Source: Escherichia phage vB_EcoM-G157lw
Reading direction: 5' to 3' (one strand)
Sequence record: OK331996.1
Length of the DNA stretch: 64,000 bases
The notes under the pieces were generated by a model that was not told the DNA's origin, ran no database searches, and saw only the letters and a list, made by a program, of their open reading frames with translations. The position numbers and the translations under genes were made by a program. This document shows, piece by piece, positions 15,126 through 40,437 of this stretch (within the stretch, counting starts at the first letter, position 1; the number at the start of each line of letters is the position of its first letter).

Positions 15126-15198
15126 TGGGAATTAGCCAAGTTGGTAAGGCACTGGATTTTGATTCCAGGATGCAAAGGTTCGAGTCCTTTATTCCCAG
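15126..15198 (+). tRNA. tRNA-Gln (anticodon UUG)
   Basis: manual cloverleaf: acceptor TGGGAAT/ATTCCCA, anticodon loop TTTTGAT, T-loop GGTTCGAGTCC. Confidence 0.8.
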
Positions 15199-15199
15199 C

Positions 15200-15286
15200 G
15201 CGAGAATGGTCAAATTGGTAAAGGCACAGCACTTAAAATGCTGCGGAATGATTTCCTTGTGGGTTCGAGTCCCACTTCTCGCACCA
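15200..15286 (+). tRNA. tRNA-Leu (anticodon UAA), class II
   Basis: acceptor GCGAGAA/TTCTCGC, loop CTTAAAA, long variable arm, encoded CCA. Confidence 0.8.
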
Positions 15287-15291
15287 AATTT

Positions 15292-15365
<74 letters not shown>

Positions 15366-15375
15366 ATTTAATTTA

Positions 15376-15449
15376 CTCCGTGTAGCTCAGTTTGGTAGAG
15401 CGCCTGATTTGGGATCAGGAGGTCCAAGGTTCAAATCCTTGTATGGAGA
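15376..15449 (+). tRNA. tRNA-Pro (anticodon UGG)
   Basis: anticodon stem CCTGA/TCAGG, loop TTTGGGA, T-loop GGTTCAAATCC. Confidence 0.75.
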
Positions 15450-15451
15450 CT

Positions 15452-15541
15452 GGAGGCGTGGCAGAGTGGTTTAATGCACCGGTCTTGAAAACCGGCAGTC
15501 GCTCCGGCGACTCATAGGTTCAAATCCTATCGCCTCCGCCA
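15452..15541 (+). tRNA. tRNA-Ser (anticodon UGA), class II
   Basis: acceptor GGAGGCG/CGCCTCC, loop CTTGAAA, long variable arm, CCA. Confidence 0.8.
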
Positions 15542-15546
15542 GTTTT

Positions 15547-15622
15547 GCTGATTTAGCTCAGTAGGTAGAGCAACTCACTTGTAATGAGAAGGTCGGCGGT
15601 TCGATTCCGTCAATCAGCACCA
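15547..15622 (+). tRNA. tRNA-Thr (anticodon UGU)
   Basis: acceptor GCTGATT/AATCAGC, loop CTTGTAA, CCA. Confidence 0.8.
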
Positions 15623-15623
15623 A

Positions 15624-15698
15624 GGCCCTGTAGCTGGAAGGTTCAAGCAAGCGACTCATAATCGCCAGATGGTGGTTCAATTCCACCCAGGGCCACCA
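15624..15698 (+). tRNA. tRNA with CAU anticodon (Ile2 lysidine-type, or Met)
   Basis: acceptor GGCCCTG/CAGGGCC, loop CTCATAA, CCA; T4 tRNA-Ile position. Confidence 0.75.
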
Positions 15699-15710
15699 AA
15701 TTATGAATTA

Positions 15711-15797
15711 GGGGAGTTATCCCGTAGAGGTAGCGGTGTGGACTGTAAATCCATTGTCATTGCGACTCGGGTGGTTCGACTCCATCACTCCCCACCA
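15711..15797 (+). tRNA. tRNA-Tyr (anticodon GUA), class II
   Basis: acceptor GGGGAGT/ACTCCCC, loop CTGTAAA, long variable arm, CCA. Confidence 0.75.
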
Positions 15798-15801
15798 ATT
15801 T

Positions 15802-15876
15802 GGATGTGTAGCTCAATGGCAGAGCGATCGCCTGTTAAGCGATTGGTTATAGGTTCGAATCCTATCACGTCCGCCA
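15802..15876 (+). tRNA. tRNA-Asn (anticodon GUU)
   Basis: anticodon stem ATCGC/GCGAT, loop CTGTTAA, T-loop GGTTCGAATCC, CCA. Confidence 0.75.
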
Positions 15877-15990
15877 AATTTGTGACAGTTGTCACATTAA
15901 TATCTACTTGACGCGATTATCGGGGTTGAACTGATCACTCTTCTCTTAATTTCGTGTGAAGACATCTTGATTGTTGGAGTAGGTATTAAT

Positions 15991-16066
15991 GTGGCCGTAG
16001 TTCAGTTGGTAGAACTCGAGATTGTGATTCTCGTAGTCATGGGTTCGACTCCCATCGGTCACCCCA
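15991..16066 (+). tRNA. tRNA-His (anticodon GUG)
   Basis: anticodon stem CGAGA/TCTCG, loop TTGTGAT, T-loop GGTTCGACTCC, CCA. Confidence 0.75.
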
Positions 16067-16070
16067 ATTA

Positions 16071-16146
16071 CGGGGCATAGCTCAGAAGGAAGAGCAAGGA
16101 CCTTCTAAGTCCTAGGTCGTAGGTTCGATCCCTACTGCCTCGACCA
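16071..16146 (+). tRNA. tRNA-Arg (anticodon UCU)
   Basis: anticodon stem AGGAC/GTCCT, loop CTTCTAA, T-loop GGTTCGATCC, CCA. Confidence 0.8.
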
Positions 16147-32340: not shown

Positions 32341-32342
32341 TA

Positions 32343-32366
32343 GGGAGCCTTCGGGCTCCCTTTTTT
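32343..32366 (+). terminator. intrinsic terminator, UUCG loop
   Basis: GGGAGCC ttcg GGCTCCC then TTTTTT. Confidence 0.75.
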
Positions 32367-32390
32367 ATTTCAAAAATTTTTCACAAAACG

Positions 32391-32420
32391 GTTTACAAGC
32401 ATAAAGCTTTATGGTACTAT
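32391..32420 (+). promoter_or_regulatory. early promoter with conserved leader (PeSL-like cassette)
   Basis: GTTTAC, TACTAT, conserved ACAACTATCAACTGATAC leader. Confidence 0.55.
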
Positions 32421-32454: not shown

Positions 32455-33423
32455 ATGAAAACTGTAACTATCAATAAGGGTATCTACTTCGGTAAAGAAA
32501 TCTCTGGAACTTTTGAGCTCTTAGGCGAATGGTTCCCGGATAATGCTCCGGTAGATGCACAAGGAGATGGTAAAGTTTTTGTTGAAATTGACGGTAAACG
32601 TCGCGGTGTTTGGGTTTACAAATCAGACATTTCATATGATGGTGTAAAAGTTGAAGAAGTTAAAGAATCGTATGAAGATATGAAAACCCGCATTAATAAA
32701 AGATTTAATGTTATGGGAATGATGACGAATGGTATTATTAACGGAAACATTCGTTCATTAATTATTTCTGGTGCGGCGGGTATTGGTAAAACGTATTCTT
32801 TAGATAAAGCTTTAAATAAAGCAAATGATATTGGATACATTGAATATAAAAGCATTAATGGTAAAATCTCTGGTATTGGTCTTTATGAACAGCTTTGGAA
32901 TAATCGTGAAGAGAATTCTGTCCTTTTGATTGATGATGTGGATGTTTTCTCTGATATGGACATTCTTAATCTTCTGAAAGCTGCTCTGGACACTGGAGAG
33001 ACCCGTAAAGTCTGCTGGAGCACTGCATCTTCTTACTTAGAAGAAAAAGGAATTGAGCGTGAGTTTGAATTTAAAGGAACGATTGTTTTTATCACAAACG
33101 TTGACATTGACCGCGAATTAGACCGTGGTACTAAACTTGCTCCACATTTACAAGCATTAGTGTCCCGCTCAGTTTATTTGGATTTGGGTGTTCACACTAA
33201 TGAAGAAATTATGGTCAGGGTTGAAGATGTTATTCTTTCAACTGACATGATGCAAAAGCGCGGTCTTTCTGATGAAGAAACTTATAAAGCATTATCATGG
33301 ATGAAAGTCAATGTTAATCGTTTACGCAATGTTTCACTGCGTACTGCTCTTTATCTTGCTGACTTTATTATGACCGACAAAAACGGTTGGGAAGAAATCG
33401 CTGAAACGGTATTATTAAAATGA
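32455..33423 (+). CDS. AAA+ family ATPase
   Basis: ATG 32455 (track start is TTG); Walker A GAAGIGKT, Walker B LLIDDVD, sensor-1-like FITN. Confidence 0.65.
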   Translation: MKTVTINKGIYFGKEISGTFELLGEWFPDNAPVDAQGDGKVFVEIDGKRRGVWVYKSDISYDGVKVEEVKESYEDMKTRINKRFNVMGMMTNGIINGNIRSLIISGAAGIGKTYSLDKALNKANDIGYIEYKSINGKISGIGLYEQLWNNREENSVLLIDDVDVFSDMDILNLLKAALDTGETRKVCWSTASSYLEEKGIEREFEFKGTIVFITNVDIDRELDRGTKLAPHLQALVSRSVYLDLGVHTNEEIMVRVEDVILSTDMMQKRGLSDEETYKALSWMKVNVNRLRNVSLRTALYLADFIMTDKNGWEEIAETVLLK

Positions 33424-34138
33424 AAAAATATTTTACTATCTATAAAACTGAAATATTAAATTTAAAGACAGGTATTAAGAAATACTATTATGGTCGACAT
33501 ATAACTAATAACATCAATGATTCGTATGTTGGTAGTGGAAATTATATAGAACGTGTAAAAGTGTCAAATGACCACATATTATCAAAAACGGTTTTAGAAG
33601 TTTTTGATAATTATGATAAAATGGTACAAGCTGAAATATTATATATCATGGCAGGTAAATTGAAATATGGAAAAACTGTGTTAACCTGTCATACGGGGGT
33701 GAAGGAGGAAAGGTTGCAGATGAAACTAGGATAAAATGCAAAAAGCATTCTATAAATTTATGGAAAAATCCTAATCATATACAGCATATGAAGAAAAAGA
33801 TGAAAGAGGTCACATCCACGCCGGAAGCTAAATTAAACACTTCAATAAAAACTTCGCAACGATATAAGGACCCAGTTTTTGTTAGAAAAGTTAGTAATAT
33901 TATTAAAAAGAAACTAAACAATCCTGCAGTAAAAGAAAAGCATATTAATGGAATTAAAGCTGCAAAGCGTTCTCATTTAACTATATGGCAGTATGAAGAT
34001 GAATTATTCGAGCTTTGGAAAGAAACTAAATATGGATGGAGAAAATTTACAAAGGAAGCTATAAAACACGGATATCCAAATGAACCGTATCGTAGTATGG
34101 TATCAACTTTTCAGAAAAGACATTTAGAAGAATCCTAA
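33420..34138 (+). pseudogene. GIY-YIG (seg-like) homing endonuclease interrupted by a frameshift
   Basis: ORF 33420-33734 has GIY-YIG-like N-terminus; downstream frame stays open back to about 33683 and overlaps it; shift near G-run 33694-33698. Confidence 0.45.
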
Positions 34139-34583: not shown

Positions 34584-35111
34584 ATGAACGCTAAAGATAT
34601 TTTCAACCTGGTAAATTATAACGATGGTAAATTTAAATCTGAAGCTCAAAGCAAGTTCTTTAATGATGTCTCAATCGGTGGTGAAATCACTGTTGATGGA
34701 GGACAAATTTACAAATCCCGTTGGAATTGGATCGTTATTATCGATGAGATTGGTATTGTAGAAATTTACAAGAATACGAATAAAAATCGTACATTACACT
34801 GGTCTCGTGATACTAACGAACAGTACAAAAAGGATAAAGCATCTAAATTATCTCGTGTAACTCAAGAAGATATTGAGTTCATCAAGAAAGATATTTTGAT
34901 GTATGATAACTTAATTGCTGAAGAGCAAGCTGTTATTGATAAATTTGACGAGATTAAAGCTTCTCGTGAAATTCCTGATTTTATGAAAGAATCAGTAAAT
35001 GAACGATACACTCTCATTTCAGAGCGTATTGAAACTTACAAAAAGCAAAGAGCTGAACGCCAGAATACTCTTCGGAAGTTTGAAGAACGGTTAAAGACGG
35101 TACTCGCATAA
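34584..35111 (+). CDS. hypothetical protein
   Basis: ATG 34584 after GGAGGAACAG; 175 aa. Confidence 0.6.
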   Translation: MNAKDIFNLVNYNDGKFKSEAQSKFFNDVSIGGEITVDGGQIYKSRWNWIVIIDEIGIVEIYKNTNKNRTLHWSRDTNEQYKKDKASKLSRVTQEDIEFIKKDILMYDNLIAEEQAVIDKFDEIKASREIPDFMKESVNERYTLISERIETYKKQRAERQNTLRKFEERLKTVLA

Positions 35112-35582: not shown

Positions 35583-36470
35583 ATGTCAGTAGTAATTAAT
35601 AATGTCAATGCAGTAATTAAATCTTTAGTTAATAAAAAATTGAATGAATGGACTGTACTTCGTCGTGGAGAGCCAGATAAATTTTTTCATAGATTTAACC
35701 CAACTTTGGATTTGAATGTTATTGACAGAGATGTTCATGCTGAAATTTTAGATAAATTTAAAGTTGATATTGGATTTGGATTAGAAAAACATTTACAGCG
35801 AACAAACGGGTCTGGAATGGGTTTATCTAATCGCATTATGAAAGCCCTTAATAAAATTGGAGCATTGTCTCGTATTAATGCAAGTGAAATTCTTCGCAAT
35901 TATAATAAAGGATATGACCTTTATGGTCGACTAATGCCAAAATTATCATTCGATCAAATGATTGAGGATTTGTGGGAAAATCAACGACGATTATTAGCAT
36001 TAGGCGCTCGATTAGCTAAAGGTCTAGATAAACAAATGATTTTTAAGACCAATAATACAGAAGACCTTAAATGCTTTAAATTTAGCACTCGTGGAGATGA
36101 TTATTACGTCAGAGCTCGCTCTACTGATTATGTCAATATGGGTCATCATCTCTGTTTAGCTTTTGAAGTTTTAAAAGAATCTGGAACATTAGAATATTCA
36201 TCTGGTGCAAAATGTCCAATTGGTTCAAGTTGTATTTTAATTTATCGCCCGGATGAATCCAGTTCAACTAAATTGCCTACAAAACCTGTACCAGTTCGTA
36301 GTAACGAAAAACATTCTGAGCAAATTGATTATTTTAATAAGCAAATTGAAGAGCTGAATATTTCTATTCAACAATATGACGATGAAATCTTTAGACTATC
36401 TGGATTGAGTAGTAAAGCTAAATCTGAGCGTGAAAAGTTAATTAAAATTGTTGATTTACTTAAATCTTAA
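35583..36470 (+). CDS. hypothetical protein with C-terminal coiled coil (array member 1)
   Basis: ATG 35583 after GAGTGAGGAAA; 295 aa. Confidence 0.6.
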   Translation: MSVVINNVNAVIKSLVNKKLNEWTVLRRGEPDKFFHRFNPTLDLNVIDRDVHAEILDKFKVDIGFGLEKHLQRTNGSGMGLSNRIMKALNKIGALSRINASEILRNYNKGYDLYGRLMPKLSFDQMIEDLWENQRRLLALGARLAKGLDKQMIFKTNNTEDLKCFKFSTRGDDYYVRARSTDYVNMGHHLCLAFEVLKESGTLEYSSGAKCPIGSSCILIYRPDESSSTKLPTKPVPVRSNEKHSEQIDYFNKQIEELNISIQQYDDEIFRLSGLSSKAKSEREKLIKIVDLLKS

Positions 36471-36478
36471 GGAACACT

Positions 36479-37498
36479 ATGAAAACTCGTTCTCAAATTG
36501 AAGATATGGTTCGTAATGCCAGCTATACTCGTGATGTTATGACATTTTTGTGCCAAAATAATTTAGACCCTGATAGAGTTAATAGTTCCATTCACTTTAA
36601 GTATATGAATAGCAGTGAATGGTTACGTCATTTTAGTAAAGCGGGATATATTACACAAATGACTGCTCGTGAGCAGCTCACCGATTTCTGTAAAACTATT
36701 GATTATAAAAATCCTCTATTTGTTCAAGGTGTTGGTCAGAGTAAGGTTGATTTATCATCTGGATTTTTCAATCCCAATCATTATCGTATTGAATGGAGAT
36801 TTATTGCTCTATTCCGTAAACAGTTAAAGCAAATTTTGTCGACAGCTAGTCGATTAAAAGGTTCTGACATTAACTTAAAGAACCTGAAATTTGATGGTTA
36901 TACTCTTCAGATGGAAGTAAGACCATTAAAAGAAAATAATAGAACTGCACGAATTAGCTTTAAACCTAATACAAAAAATTCTCTTTCAATTTGTGAATGC
37001 CTTAAATCACAGTTGACAGAAGCATTTAAGTATATGGATGTTGTTGCCGCTGTTCAGTCTAAGATTTTACCTCGTTTTGAACGATTTAAGTTAGATACAA
37101 CATCATATGAACTTGATATGATCGTTTCATTTAAATACGATTTTTTGAGAAAGGACGAAGTCCCGCAAGAGAAAAAGCAGGAAGTACAAGATAACTTAAA
37201 TTTATCCAATTACTTATCAAACGATCCTAAATTTTGGATGTATAGTTCAGGTAATAATGATGCATGGAAATTCAATAAAGTGAATTTTCTTCCTGTTGAA
37301 AATCCGAGTCTTAAACCTGTTGAAAAATGGCACGCGGATGCGATTGAGAAGTCTATCAAGGCAGTAGATGATGAACTCGTTAAAGCGACCAATGAAGTGC
37401 TAGAAGCTGAAAAGGCGTTAGAACAAGCTCAGTCAAGGGTTCAAAATCTGACAAAGCAACGTTCTAAACTGAACAATGCATTAAATGCACTGAACTAG
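36479..37498 (+). CDS. hypothetical protein with C-terminal coiled coil (array member 2)
   Basis: 339 aa, N-terminus MKTRSQIEDM. Confidence 0.65.
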   Translation: MKTRSQIEDMVRNASYTRDVMTFLCQNNLDPDRVNSSIHFKYMNSSEWLRHFSKAGYITQMTAREQLTDFCKTIDYKNPLFVQGVGQSKVDLSSGFFNPNHYRIEWRFIALFRKQLKQILSTASRLKGSDINLKNLKFDGYTLQMEVRPLKENNRTARISFKPNTKNSLSICECLKSQLTEAFKYMDVVAAVQSKILPRFERFKLDTTSYELDMIVSFKYDFLRKDEVPQEKKQEVQDNLNLSNYLSNDPKFWMYSSGNNDAWKFNKVNFLPVENPSLKPVEKWHADAIEKSIKAVDDELVKATNEVLEAEKALEQAQSRVQNLTKQRSKLNNALNALN

Positions 37499-37527
37499 TT
37501 TACTTTGCCACAAGGATGTGGTATAAT
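37498..37527 (+). promoter_or_regulatory. early promoter GTTTAC ... TGGTATAAT
   Basis: extended -10 consensus. Confidence 0.5.
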
Positions 37528-37555
37528 GTTCTTACTTTCTACTGAGGAGATTAAT

Positions 37556-38560
37556 ATGACTCGTAACGAATATATCAAATCATTCAATAGGGTTATTGAT
37601 GATAAAGTTAAACCCATGTCTAGTCAGAATGCTGTTCTTTCTATTATCAATCAATGGCTCAGCAGTATTGATGCAAGTATTGTTTCTTCCAGTAAATTTA
37701 TTCATGAAGTTCGTGAAATTTCTAGCCGTGTAGATAAAGATGATATTAAGATAATCTTTAAAGGGTCTCGTCTTCTTTCATATTTAGTTAATCGGGATAT
37801 TCTTGGTAATTTTGGGAAAGAAATTAAACGAACTAAAGGTGTAATAGGATACAATTGGTTCGGTGATGTTAATTCTTCTTATCATCTTAATATCAAAGAA
37901 GACCCTAAGAATATTTTTACTCGTCGTTGGATTAGTAATTTCAGACTTTTTAAAGGACAAATTCTAAAATCAGCTTCTAAATTATGTTATGGCGATTATC
38001 GTCAAATTCATCCTTTGGCTTCTGATATGATTATCGTAAAAGAATATGAGCTTGATAAAAATAAAGTAGCTATTTTTGTGAATTATGAATTTTTTACACC
38101 AGAAGCTAACCAAAAGAATATTAATAAATTTTTCTCAATTGCTAGCACTATAACTCATCAATTAGAGACGGCTTTGGATTGTATGGAAACTGTAAAAAGT
38201 ATTCATACATATCCTTTCAAAAATATTGGTGGTTGGGAAGGATATAAAATTGTAATTAGTCTTCGTGAAGTGAAATGTGCTTATTCACTAACTGATAAAG
38301 AAATTTACCAACAAAAATGCGAAGAAATTGTGAATACTCCTAAAGAAGAAACTACCCTTGAGGAACTAATGGATAATCTTGACGATTCACTTGAACCGGT
38401 AGAAATTCGTCCAGAAGTTGTTGCACTAGAAAAAGCTTATAAAGAAGTTCTAGAAATTTCTAATAAAGCGCAGAAAGAATATGAGAAGGCTAAAAAGATT
38501 TGGGAAGAATCTGTTAATCGCTTGGATCGTCTTGAACAAGCTTTACAGTTAATTAAGTAA
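37556..38560 (+). CDS. hypothetical protein with C-terminal coiled coil (array member 3)
   Basis: ATG 37556 after GAGGAG; 334 aa. Confidence 0.6.
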   Translation: MTRNEYIKSFNRVIDDKVKPMSSQNAVLSIINQWLSSIDASIVSSSKFIHEVREISSRVDKDDIKIIFKGSRLLSYLVNRDILGNFGKEIKRTKGVIGYNWFGDVNSSYHLNIKEDPKNIFTRRWISNFRLFKGQILKSASKLCYGDYRQIHPLASDMIIVKEYELDKNKVAIFVNYEFFTPEANQKNINKFFSIASTITHQLETALDCMETVKSIHTYPFKNIGGWEGYKIVISLREVKCAYSLTDKEIYQQKCEEIVNTPKEETTLEELMDNLDDSLEPVEIRPEVVALEKAYKEVLEISNKAQKEYEKAKKIWEESVNRLDRLEQALQLIK

Positions 38561-38611
38561 TTTAAAGCCAAGGATGGCTCGGAGTATAAATCATTAACAA
38601 GTGAGAAGAAC

Positions 38612-39541
38612 ATGAAAACTCGTAAACATTATATTGATTATTTTGACAGTCTTATTACTAAACATCGTAATTATCAGATCGGACACAGAGCAGTAATCAA
38701 TAATATTCTTCGTGATTTCCTTCAATATGTTGGCCAGGAAAATCATATCTGTAAAGATACTCAAAACGCTTATTCTCATTCGTTAGGCAATTTGCTTGAA
38801 TGGTTTAAACGTTCTCGTATGTTATCTTCTACTATAGCTCGTGATAACATTAAAAACTTTATGAAGCCGAGCTTCATTAAATCTGAGACATCTATAACCG
38901 ATTTGGTTCAATTTACTATTGTTAACGATGTTAAAAAGACCCATTTGGCTGATTGGTTATCTACCATTCCTGAAACTAAATTTGCTGATAAATTTGCTTG
39001 TCAATTCAATACCCAAGTGAATATGCTTTTTAAGCATGCTCGCAAACTGTTTACCGCGGGCGATGATCGTACAAATACAGTTCATGTTAAGGACTGGGTT
39101 ATTGCTGATGAAGTAACACACAAGCCAGGTGGTTCATCAGTATTAATTAATATCCAGGTTCCTTATTATTACTCACGTAATCTCGGCACCATGACAGCTA
39201 AAGAAATTAATAAGCACAACAAAACTATTCGTTCGTTGTCTTATAAACTCCGCATGATGTTAAAAATTATGGACGTAGTGGAAATGTATGACGAAACCGA
39301 AGATAATGGTTCAATGTTATACAGTTCACGCATTCTAATTAAACTGAAGAACCCTAATACATATAAGACAGTTGTAAAAGAGCCTAAAGTAGAAAAGGTT
39401 GATAATCTGGGTGAAGAACGTGAATATCTCAATGCCCGTTTGACTGAAGTTGAAAAACAAATTGAAGAGCATACTAAAGTTCTTAAGGCTTTAACCGCCA
39501 AAGCAAATGGTTTACGTAATGCTATTGAGGTATTGAAATGA
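38612..39541 (+). CDS. hypothetical protein with C-terminal coiled coil (array member 4)
   Basis: 309 aa, N-terminus MKTRKHYIDY. Confidence 0.65.
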   Translation: MKTRKHYIDYFDSLITKHRNYQIGHRAVINNILRDFLQYVGQENHICKDTQNAYSHSLGNLLEWFKRSRMLSSTIARDNIKNFMKPSFIKSETSITDLVQFTIVNDVKKTHLADWLSTIPETKFADKFACQFNTQVNMLFKHARKLFTAGDDRTNTVHVKDWVIADEVTHKPGGSSVLINIQVPYYYSRNLGTMTAKEINKHNKTIRSLSYKLRMMLKIMDVVEMYDETEDNGSMLYSSRILIKLKNPNTYKTVVKEPKVEKVDNLGEEREYLNARLTEVEKQIEEHTKVLKALTAKANGLRNAIEVLK

Positions 39542-39927
39542 AAAAGCGTTTATTAGAAGACATTGCAGCTTCAAGTAATTCTAGTCTAATTAAAATTATT
39601 ATGGCTGGTGAGGAAGATGATATGGAAATGCGTGGAAAGATTCACGGCTGCGATGATTTAGATTTTAAACCTCCAGCATGGGATGCTATTATGGCTATGG
39701 TTGAACGTCGCGAAAGGGCTTCTAAAAACGTTCCTAATTGCCCTGAATGCGGTACTGAACAAGTTCAATTGATTAACTGGCGTAAACCAGAGCTTGAATA
39801 TAAATGCCGTCAATGTAAACATAAATTCAGTAAGCATGCTCCGGAAATGGTTAAATTGCCTGACTCTACTGAGTTCTTTAAAGAACTTGTGAGTGTTCAA
39901 CCAATGCCTAATAATATTTTGGATTAA
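39538..39927 (+). CDS. zinc-ribbon protein
   Basis: 129 aa; CPECG ... CRQCKHKF. Confidence 0.55.
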
Positions 39928-40173: not shown

Positions 40174-40437
40174 ATGTTTAAAGTATATGGTTATGATAGC
40201 AACATTCATAAATGTGTGTATTGCGATAATGCAAAACGTCTTTTGACCGTGAAGAAACAGCCGTTTGAATTTATTAACATTATGCCGGAAAAAGGTGTTT
40301 TTGATGATGAGAAAATCGCTGAGCTTCTGACTAAACTAGGTCGTGATACTCAAATTGGATTGACAATGCCGCAGGTATTCGCTCCAGATGGAAGTCATAT
40401 TGGTGGATTTGACCAATTGCGGGAATACTTTAAATGA
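40174..40437 (+). CDS. nrdC: phage thioredoxin/glutaredoxin NrdC
   Basis: 87 aa MFKVYGYDSNIHKCVYCDNAKRLL..., CVYC active site. Confidence 0.9.
   Translation: MFKVYGYDSNIHKCVYCDNAKRLLTVKKQPFEFINIMPEKGVFDDEKIAELLTKLGRDTQIGLTMPQVFAPDGSHIGGFDQLREYFK

Follow-up and report, generated by a model that had tools for sequence, protein, structure and literature searches.

In the 64,000-nucleotide stretch of Escherichia phage vB_EcoM-G157lw analysed here (record OK331996.1, hereafter the window), four consecutive open reading frames (ORFs) encode proteins that an earlier sequence-only reading had described as a diversifying family of paralogues, each combining a globular region with a heptad-rich C-terminal tail. 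All four ORFs are present as described, and we refer to them as genes A to D (Table 1). Approximately 5.5 kb around the array matched 743 phage records, nearly all from Tequatrovirus and its relatives, with Escherichia phage ECML-363 as the top record (99.2%). Sequence similarity assigns the window to Tequatrovirus and genes A to D to nrdC.6, nrdC.5, nrdC.4 and nrdC.3 of the T-even phages, respectively. These are catalogued T4 genes, and nrdC.5 has a published function against the Dsr1 defence system; the sequence-only reading had recognised neither. In the annotated RB14 and T4 records the array is preceded by nrdC.7 and nrdC.8 and followed by nrdC.2, nrdC.1 and the glutaredoxin gene, nrdC, and the neighbours include other host-interference factors, namely pin and one gene annotated as an antitoxin. 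The array genes are co-directional and each is preceded by a plausible Shine-Dalgarno sequence. As noted previously, B and D start with MKTR and C with MTRNEY, and we observed that the T/R residues at positions 2-4 are invariant in the B and C/D families.

Table 1. Genes, predicted coiled-coil tails and predicted promoter of the nrdC.6-nrdC.3 array (positions in the window)
Feature	Position	Strand	Basis or family
Gene A, nrdC.6 orthologue, 295 aa	35583-36470	+	PF26899 Phage_T4_Y05B (via close homologues), phrog_2257
Gene B, nrdC.5 orthologue, 339 aa	36479-37498	+	PF23882 DUF7235, phrog_2351
Gene C, nrdC.4 orthologue, 334 aa	37556-38560	+	PF26897 Phage_T4_Y04OP, phrog_1435
Gene D, nrdC.3 orthologue, 309 aa	38612-39541	+	phrog_1435; close paralogue of C
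Predicted coiled-coil tail of A, last 45 codons	36333-36467	+	heptad statistics
Predicted coiled-coil tail of B, last 45 codons	37361-37495	+	heptad statistics; AlphaFold helix 280-338
Predicted coiled-coil tail of C, last 45 codons	38423-38557	+	heptad statistics; AlphaFold helix 286-333
Predicted coiled-coil tail of D, last 45 codons	39404-39538	+	heptad statistics
Sigma-70/T4-early-type promoter-like site, GTTTACT-N17-TG-TATAAT	37498-37527	+	10/12 matches with extended -10

The four proteins have a common architecture, consisting of a head of approximately 235-275 amino acids (aa), a linker and a C-terminal helix of approximately 45-59 aa whose heptad register is uninterrupted. In the final 45 residues a single register places hydrophobic side chains at 85-92% of the a and d positions, compared to 19-25% elsewhere. 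Very few of 2000 shuffled sequences were as good, with values of 85% against 19% for A (1 shuffle), 92% against 19% for B (none), 85% against 25% for C (5) and 85% against 22% for D (3). Of the ORFs in the window 63 are 120 aa or longer, and in a ranking of these by heptad-tail score the array proteins took the first four places (0.60-0.74; next 0.50, median 0.26), in agreement with the tails proposed from the sequence. The register counted from the C-terminus is identical in all four and includes a shared terminal motif, L..A[LI]..L[KN], with the tail sequences being family-specific except for the last ~10 residues. In the alignments the tails are better conserved than the heads within every family. 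In the A family tail identity is 65% and head identity 41%, the tail being the more conserved part in 93 of 93 members; the corresponding values are 0.79 and 0.73 for the B family (17 of 20 members) and 79% and 66% for the C family (58 of 60), and between D and its T4 copy the tail is 84% and the head 59% identical. The fifth-ranked ORF, nrdC.8 (34584-35111), lies upstream of nrdC.7 and also carries a heptad-like helical tail (score 0.50, rank 5 of 63). It was rejected as a further family member, as profile comparison gave no relationship to the four families.

The sequence-only reading had suggested pairwise and profile alignments as a check on the proposed duplication. Pairwise BLASTP among the four proteins gave no significant match (best E-value 0.07), whereas profiles of the heads did. 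Family alignments were built from database homologues together with orthologues from Mosigvirus, Dhakavirus and Gaprivervirus genomes, and the tails were cut before comparison because coiled-coil composition could inflate full-length scores. Using hhalign the tail-less C and D profiles aligned with a probability of 98.5% (E 3e-15, 211 columns) and those of B and C with 90.5% (E 1.3e-6, 176 columns). Shuffled and reversed controls for these two pairs gave E-values of 0.017 or worse. All 12 reversed-template controls, taken over the comparisons as a whole, were at 0.16 or worse. The direct comparisons of A with B (14.6%, E 0.002) and with C (3%) were weaker. Against a merged B+C+D profile, also tail-less, A aligned with a probability of 79% (E 1.6e-5) and a score of 42.0, whereas none of 60 column-shuffled controls scored above 19.0. 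The head alignments are collinear and the same motif blocks were recovered independently by MAFFT. The helical N-domain contains the block [FL].K....[LI][ST]....[AN]R[ED].[LI]..[FY], and the alpha/beta domain the blocks [FW]..Q....L...A[RS][RK]L..G.D and QL..A[FL]..M[DE].V. Examples of one aligned block are FRKQLKQILSTASRLKGSD in B, FRLFKGQILKSASKLCYGD in C, FNTQVNMLFKHARKLFTAGDD in D and WENQRRLLALGARLAKGLD in A, and of a second FKYMDVV in B and LKIMDVV in D. In PHROGs C and D both belong to phrog_1435, and B and C each weakly match phrog_26858. When 1.84 billion representatives were searched exhaustively by HMMER, the C/D profile returned 10 matches, which makes the C/D family tiny at the sequence level and left the search short of the A or B families. 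A protein from this search (P0235) bridges the families, having a C-type N-terminus and a B-type tail. Taken by their profiles, A to D are anciently diverged paralogues of one Straboviridae accessory-protein superfamily, with a head homology that is independent of the tail and nrdC.6 as the most divergent member, and the duplication proposed earlier holds. We consider the duplications ancient because the pairwise BLASTP comparison was blank and the A-B-C order is older than the split of at least four genera.

Structure prediction and a fold search had also been suggested, and these succeeded for C. The AlphaFold2 model of C has a mean pLDDT of 81, with values above 90 over most of residues 1-245, and consists of a helical N-domain and an alpha/beta domain (residues 1-~260), a disordered linker (263-285) and a long helix (286-333). 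For B only the shallow alignment of its own family was used, so that the model would not depend on C; it reached a pLDDT of 44 and was confident in helix 280-338 only. Using Foldseek against BFVD the C model matched a Tequatrovirus protein that, at 308 aa, has the length of nrdC.3 (E 5.6e-8), as well as the independently predicted nrdC.6 of phage JS10 (E 1e-4, probability 1.00). It also matched ~12 uncharacterised proteins of 300-370 aa from T4-like phages of Acinetobacter, Klebsiella, Pectobacterium, Enterobacter, Erwinia, Serratia, Yersinia and Aeromonas, with all BFVD matches at a probability of 0.97-1.00. The models indicate a shared fold directly for C with nrdC.6-type and nrdC.3-type proteins only. 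Foldseek of the C model against the PDB gave no match at E <=0.001, and sequence-profile searches of the PDB returned designed helical repeats and noise, with no related solved structure. Two of the BFVD matches, E5E4A1 and E5E4A2, are from Acinetobacter phage Acj61, and were paired by length and adjacent accessions with p120 (330 aa) and p121 (304 aa). These adjacent genes lie between nrdC.10 and nrdC (L006 35452-37472), the same locus as the array, and belong to a different subfamily. The heptad tail of p120 was equalled by 86 of 2000 shuffles and that of p121 is weak. Neither protein has sequence-level similarity to the four families, the relationship coming from Foldseek, the lengths and the adjacent accessions, and p120/p121 are a probable pair at the same locus.

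The family assignments of the individual proteins are consistent with this picture. B matches all 307 positions of the PF23882 (DUF7235) profile (E 3.5e-122) and scores 408 bits, the cut-off being 30, whereas A, C and D have no match to this model. C and D match phrog_1435 (E 2e-162 and E 9.9e-115), and in precomputed annotation PF26897 is carried by P0058, which is 100% identical to C, as it is by proteins 98-100% identical to C. A matches phrog_2257 (E 1.5e-152), and its homologues at 97-98% identity carry PF26899. In every table examined PF26897/phrog_1435, PF26899 and DUF7235 are listed apart from one another, as three families with no function assigned. Pfam (Y04OP) and PHROGs already record the relationship of C and D; the modest novelty here lies in joining nrdC.5 and nrdC.6 to nrdC.3 and nrdC.4, in the pattern of tail and head conservation and in the functional interpretation below. 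The earlier reader recognised no catalytic motif, and we likewise found no curated family of known activity, enzymatic or defence-related, above cut-off for A to D in Pfam, NCBIfam or PADLOC. Matches to LmuB, BrxC and PgrA in the PADLOC and NCBIfam searches were dismissed as coiled-coil noise.

The earlier reading had suggested a check of copy number across related phages, and the composition of the array differs between genera. The order A-B-C is found in Dhakavirus, Gaprivervirus and one metagenomic contig, A being followed there by an inserted ORF of 71 aa. The order is A-B-C-D in Tequatrovirus and A-B-D in Mosigvirus ST0, and B is split in phage SP18. The sequences place the A-B-C order before the split of at least four Tevenvirinae genera. 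Among the genomes compared, Tequatrovirus and Mosigvirus were the only genera with nrdC.3, and only the C/D pair is of restricted distribution. The array genes are dispensable in nature. Within Tequatrovirus copy number varies by deletion, and natural deletions and one fusion leave 1-3 copies. In ACG-C40 (L010 4305-4716) a deletion of ~2.8 kb starts near codon 70 of nrdC.5 and ends within the nrdC.3 tail, leaving nrdC.6 alone intact, and in Pinarejo (L011 4501-4641) nrdC.6 is lost but for its last 47 codons. The fusion (P0056) joins nrdC.5 to nrdC.3 without nrdC.4, with the junction FNKVN / MLFKHARK at positions that are not equivalent. Tail-only tblastn matches in ACG-C40 and Pinarejo had raised the possibility of heads being swapped on a constant tail, which we ruled out as both are deletions.

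We also compared the array with that of T4. Identity to the T4 copy is 97% for A, 95.9% for B, 88% for C, 62% for D and 78% for nrdC.2, with flanking genes at 97-100%. D is closer to the copy in Mosigvirus ST0 (74.5%) than to that in T4, and its synonymous divergence (dS) from T4 is 0.83, compared to ~0.1-0.2 in the flanks. The identities of nrdC.3 together with the raised dS therefore indicate allele replacement by recombination. The mosaic segment, 38612-39927, comprises nrdC.3 and nrdC.2 and falls into tblastn identity classes of >=90%, 73-77% and 60-62% across phage records. The ratio of non-synonymous to synonymous divergence (dN/dS) rises along the array and is always below 1, at 0.06-0.07 for A, 0.11-0.18 for B, 0.13-0.31 for C and 0.23-0.35 for D. 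With values of 0.06-0.35, whole-gene positive selection is unsupported. In these comparisons the variation arises from allele replacement and deletions, and the word diversifying used previously stands in that sense and not as positive selection on whole genes.

A function has been published for one of the four genes. A T4 clone with compensatory deletions does not plate on ECOR17 or on MG1655 carrying ECOR17 dsr1 (PMC9391042), and T4 nrdC.5 supplied in trans restores plating on dsr1 cells, countering the Dsr1 sirtuin/NADase defence (PMC9391042, Srikant et al. 2022, eLife). In the same work nrdC.5 is described as an early gene (PMC9391042); the plus strand of the window is the direction of the array genes. 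A January 2026 preprint reports that the TPR sensor of Dsr1 recognises the phage major capsid protein (PMC12803255). B is the orthologue of T4 NrdC.5 (Y05A_BPT4, DUF7235), at the same locus, and A, C and D have its architecture, motif blocks and tail motif. They differ in being only remote homologues (~12-25% identity), with the anti-Dsr1 phenotype published for nrdC.5 alone. In the searchable literature we found no publication on the mechanism of NrdC.5, and nothing on nrdC.3, nrdC.4 or nrdC.6 beyond genome announcements. A functional analogy is provided by DSAD1, a small phage protein without enzymatic activity. It inhibits a SIR2-type NADase, the DSR2 sirtuin defence, by binding directly to its sensor domain (PMC10981675, PMC11087589). 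The array proteins have no similarity to DSAD1 in sequence or fold.

We hypothesised that the array proteins may be non-enzymatic counter-defence binders with a shared oligomerising tail, an interpretation to which we give an even chance and whose counter-defence part is published for nrdC.5 only. We infer that nrdC.6, nrdC.4 and nrdC.3 would also act in counter-defence, that binding would be direct and that the tails would oligomerise. The superfamily is fixed at a locus between nrdC.10/nrdC.8 and nrdC, where it behaves as a set of accessory genes, which would be transcribed early and with an extra conserved predicted promoter before nrdC.4. The fast-diverging head would bind a host immune protein and block it stoichiometrically, without enzymatic activity, while the constrained coiled-coil tail, following a flexible linker, would oligomerise the inhibitor and so provide avidity against oligomeric sensors. 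Each paralogue may have its own target, with nrdC.5 acting on Dsr1 and the others on different sensors or variants.

Several observations count against this interpretation. Functional data exist for one gene of the four, nrdC.5, and paralogues need not share a function. Oligomerisation of the tails is suggested by heptad statistics only. At the level of whole genes the dN/dS values, all below 1, carry no sign of an arms race, and conservation is strong in nrdC.6 (0.06-0.07). The direct pairwise links of A are marginal (probability 0.2-15%, E 0.002-0.015), and one column-shuffled A-D control reached E 0.002. The place of B in the fold comes from sequence profiles only, because of the low pLDDT of its model. 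Finally, A, B and D have a basic pI of 9.2-9.4, with which nucleic-acid binding would also be compatible.

A different explanation, which we consider possible but doubtful, is that the four proteins are paralogous and nrdC.5 is the sole counter-defence factor, the others having drifted to unrelated early host-takeover roles such as nucleic-acid or protein binding. The very deep divergence, the basic character of A, B and D and the purifying selection on nrdC.6, which is 95-99% conserved within Tequatrovirus and in this respect unlike a typical arms-race gene, would all be consistent with such drift. So would the N-terminal helical region of D, which is weakly similar to the SAM-like core-binding domain of tyrosine recombinases. 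The matches (NCBIfam E 0.001, Pfam E 0.059) are far below cut-off, and we rejected an integrase SAM-like N-domain as a classification for D.

It is also conceivable, though improbable in our estimate, that A to D join through their tails into one hetero-oligomeric complex with a single function, anti-Dsr1 or other. The common register relative to the C-terminal motif, the adjacent and co-directional genes and the greater conservation of the tails would be expected of such a complex. However, nrdC.5 alone in trans suffices against Dsr1, the main text of PMC9391042 being silent on deletion of the neighbours in the rescued clone, and the tails are family-specific apart from their last ~10 residues. 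Viable subsets also exist, with nrdC.6 alone in ACG-C40, nrdC.6 missing in Pinarejo, A-B-D in Mosigvirus and A-B-C in Dhakavirus and Gaprivervirus.

A further alternative, and one we regard as very improbable, is that nrdC.6 shares no ancestry with B, C and D and that its head-plus-tail architecture is convergent or was acquired as a common tail module. The weak direct profiles of A with B, C and D and the shuffled control at E 0.002 would allow this, as would the extent of the significant alignment of A to the merged profile (107 columns, all in the N-terminal half) and Foldseek TM-scores of 0.38 and 0.44. Low TM-scores are however expected, because the flexible linker and the free helix are included, and the Foldseek probability of 1.00 links independently derived models. 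The margin of the merged-profile score over its 60 shuffles also argues for homology, and the match is collinear between proteins of equal length, with the position of A beside B kept in four genera and the metagenomic contig.

That these are thioredoxin-like or nucleotide-metabolism proteins, as the 'thioredoxin' label of nrdC.3-nrdC.10 in many deposited records would imply, is extremely improbable, since A to D have no thioredoxin or glutaredoxin match in Pfam or NCBIfam and no CxxC in their translations, and the C model, with its helical and alpha/beta domains and long helix, is not a thioredoxin fold. Many GenBank records use this label from nrdC.3 to nrdC.10, and it tracks the positional names nrdC.N and was apparently carried over from the true glutaredoxin gene, nrdC (40174-40437). 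We flag it as a widespread mis-annotation of the array genes in public records.

Returning to the counter-defence interpretation, the chassis common to all four proteins makes the isolated anti-Dsr1 result a testable hypothesis for the family. Even in T4, which has been studied more than any other lytic phage, nrdC.3, nrdC.4 and nrdC.6 are without an assigned function, and they would be three ready candidates for new counter-defence activities. The comparison suggests a division of labour between domains, with the head providing specificity and the tail oligomerisation, and points to related structures at the same locus in phages of Acinetobacter, Klebsiella, Erwinia, Serratia and Pectobacterium. 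A more speculative extension, which we consider a long shot, is that these are 'constant tail, variable head' immune-evasion cassettes across the Straboviridae, in which the alpha/beta half would act as an early decoy for TPR-type sensors such as Dsr1 and Avs. The sensors in question would recognise the folds of conserved virion proteins, and the alpha/beta half has a weak resemblance to tail terminator and tail completion proteins (lambda gpU, T5 p142, SPP1 gp17-like, pyocin collar). Each paralogue might then engage a sensor of its own ahead of the appearance of late structural proteins, with the coiled coil giving multivalency.

The sequence-only reading had also placed an internal early promoter between B and C, splitting the array. 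The predicted site is near consensus, lies in the 57-nt B-C gap and ranks in the top three of the sigma-70-type matches over 10.5 kb. In an alignment of four records, namely the window, RB14 and two T4 records, it is conserved apart from one spacer substitution in RB14. Promoter-like sites as a class are no more numerous in the region than in shuffles. An inverted repeat, TGCCACA AGGA TGTGGTA (37506-37523), lies inside the spacer and is conserved in T4. The predicted nrdC.4 promoter probably adds to read-through rather than isolating two operons, because no terminator-like site precedes it on the plus strand.

Further upstream, a strong terminator-like hairpin at 32342-32361 has a stem of 8 bp with 6 G-C pairs, followed by a T-run, and after it a promoter-like sequence, TTTACA-N17-TACTAT (32392-32420), lies just upstream of nrdC.10. 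From their sequence, these elements (32342-32420) probably mark the start of a transcription unit running into the array. Between nrdC.10 and nrdC.9 we observed a seg-like GIY-YIG homing-endonuclease gene (33420-34138), which is frameshifted into ORFs of 104 and 116 aa. In tblastn the intact 239-aa endonuclease of RB14 matched it in two frames, one covering residues 1-93 and the other residues 85-239, and because the match is split in this way we take the gene as a probable pseudogene or sequencing frameshift. The window also contains a cluster of 11 tRNA genes on the plus strand (15126-16146), for Gln, Leu, Gly, Pro, Ser, Thr, Met(CAT), Tyr, Asn, His and Arg. Reference T4 has 8 tRNA genes, and on that count the window phage would carry tRNA-Tyr, -Asn and -His in addition.

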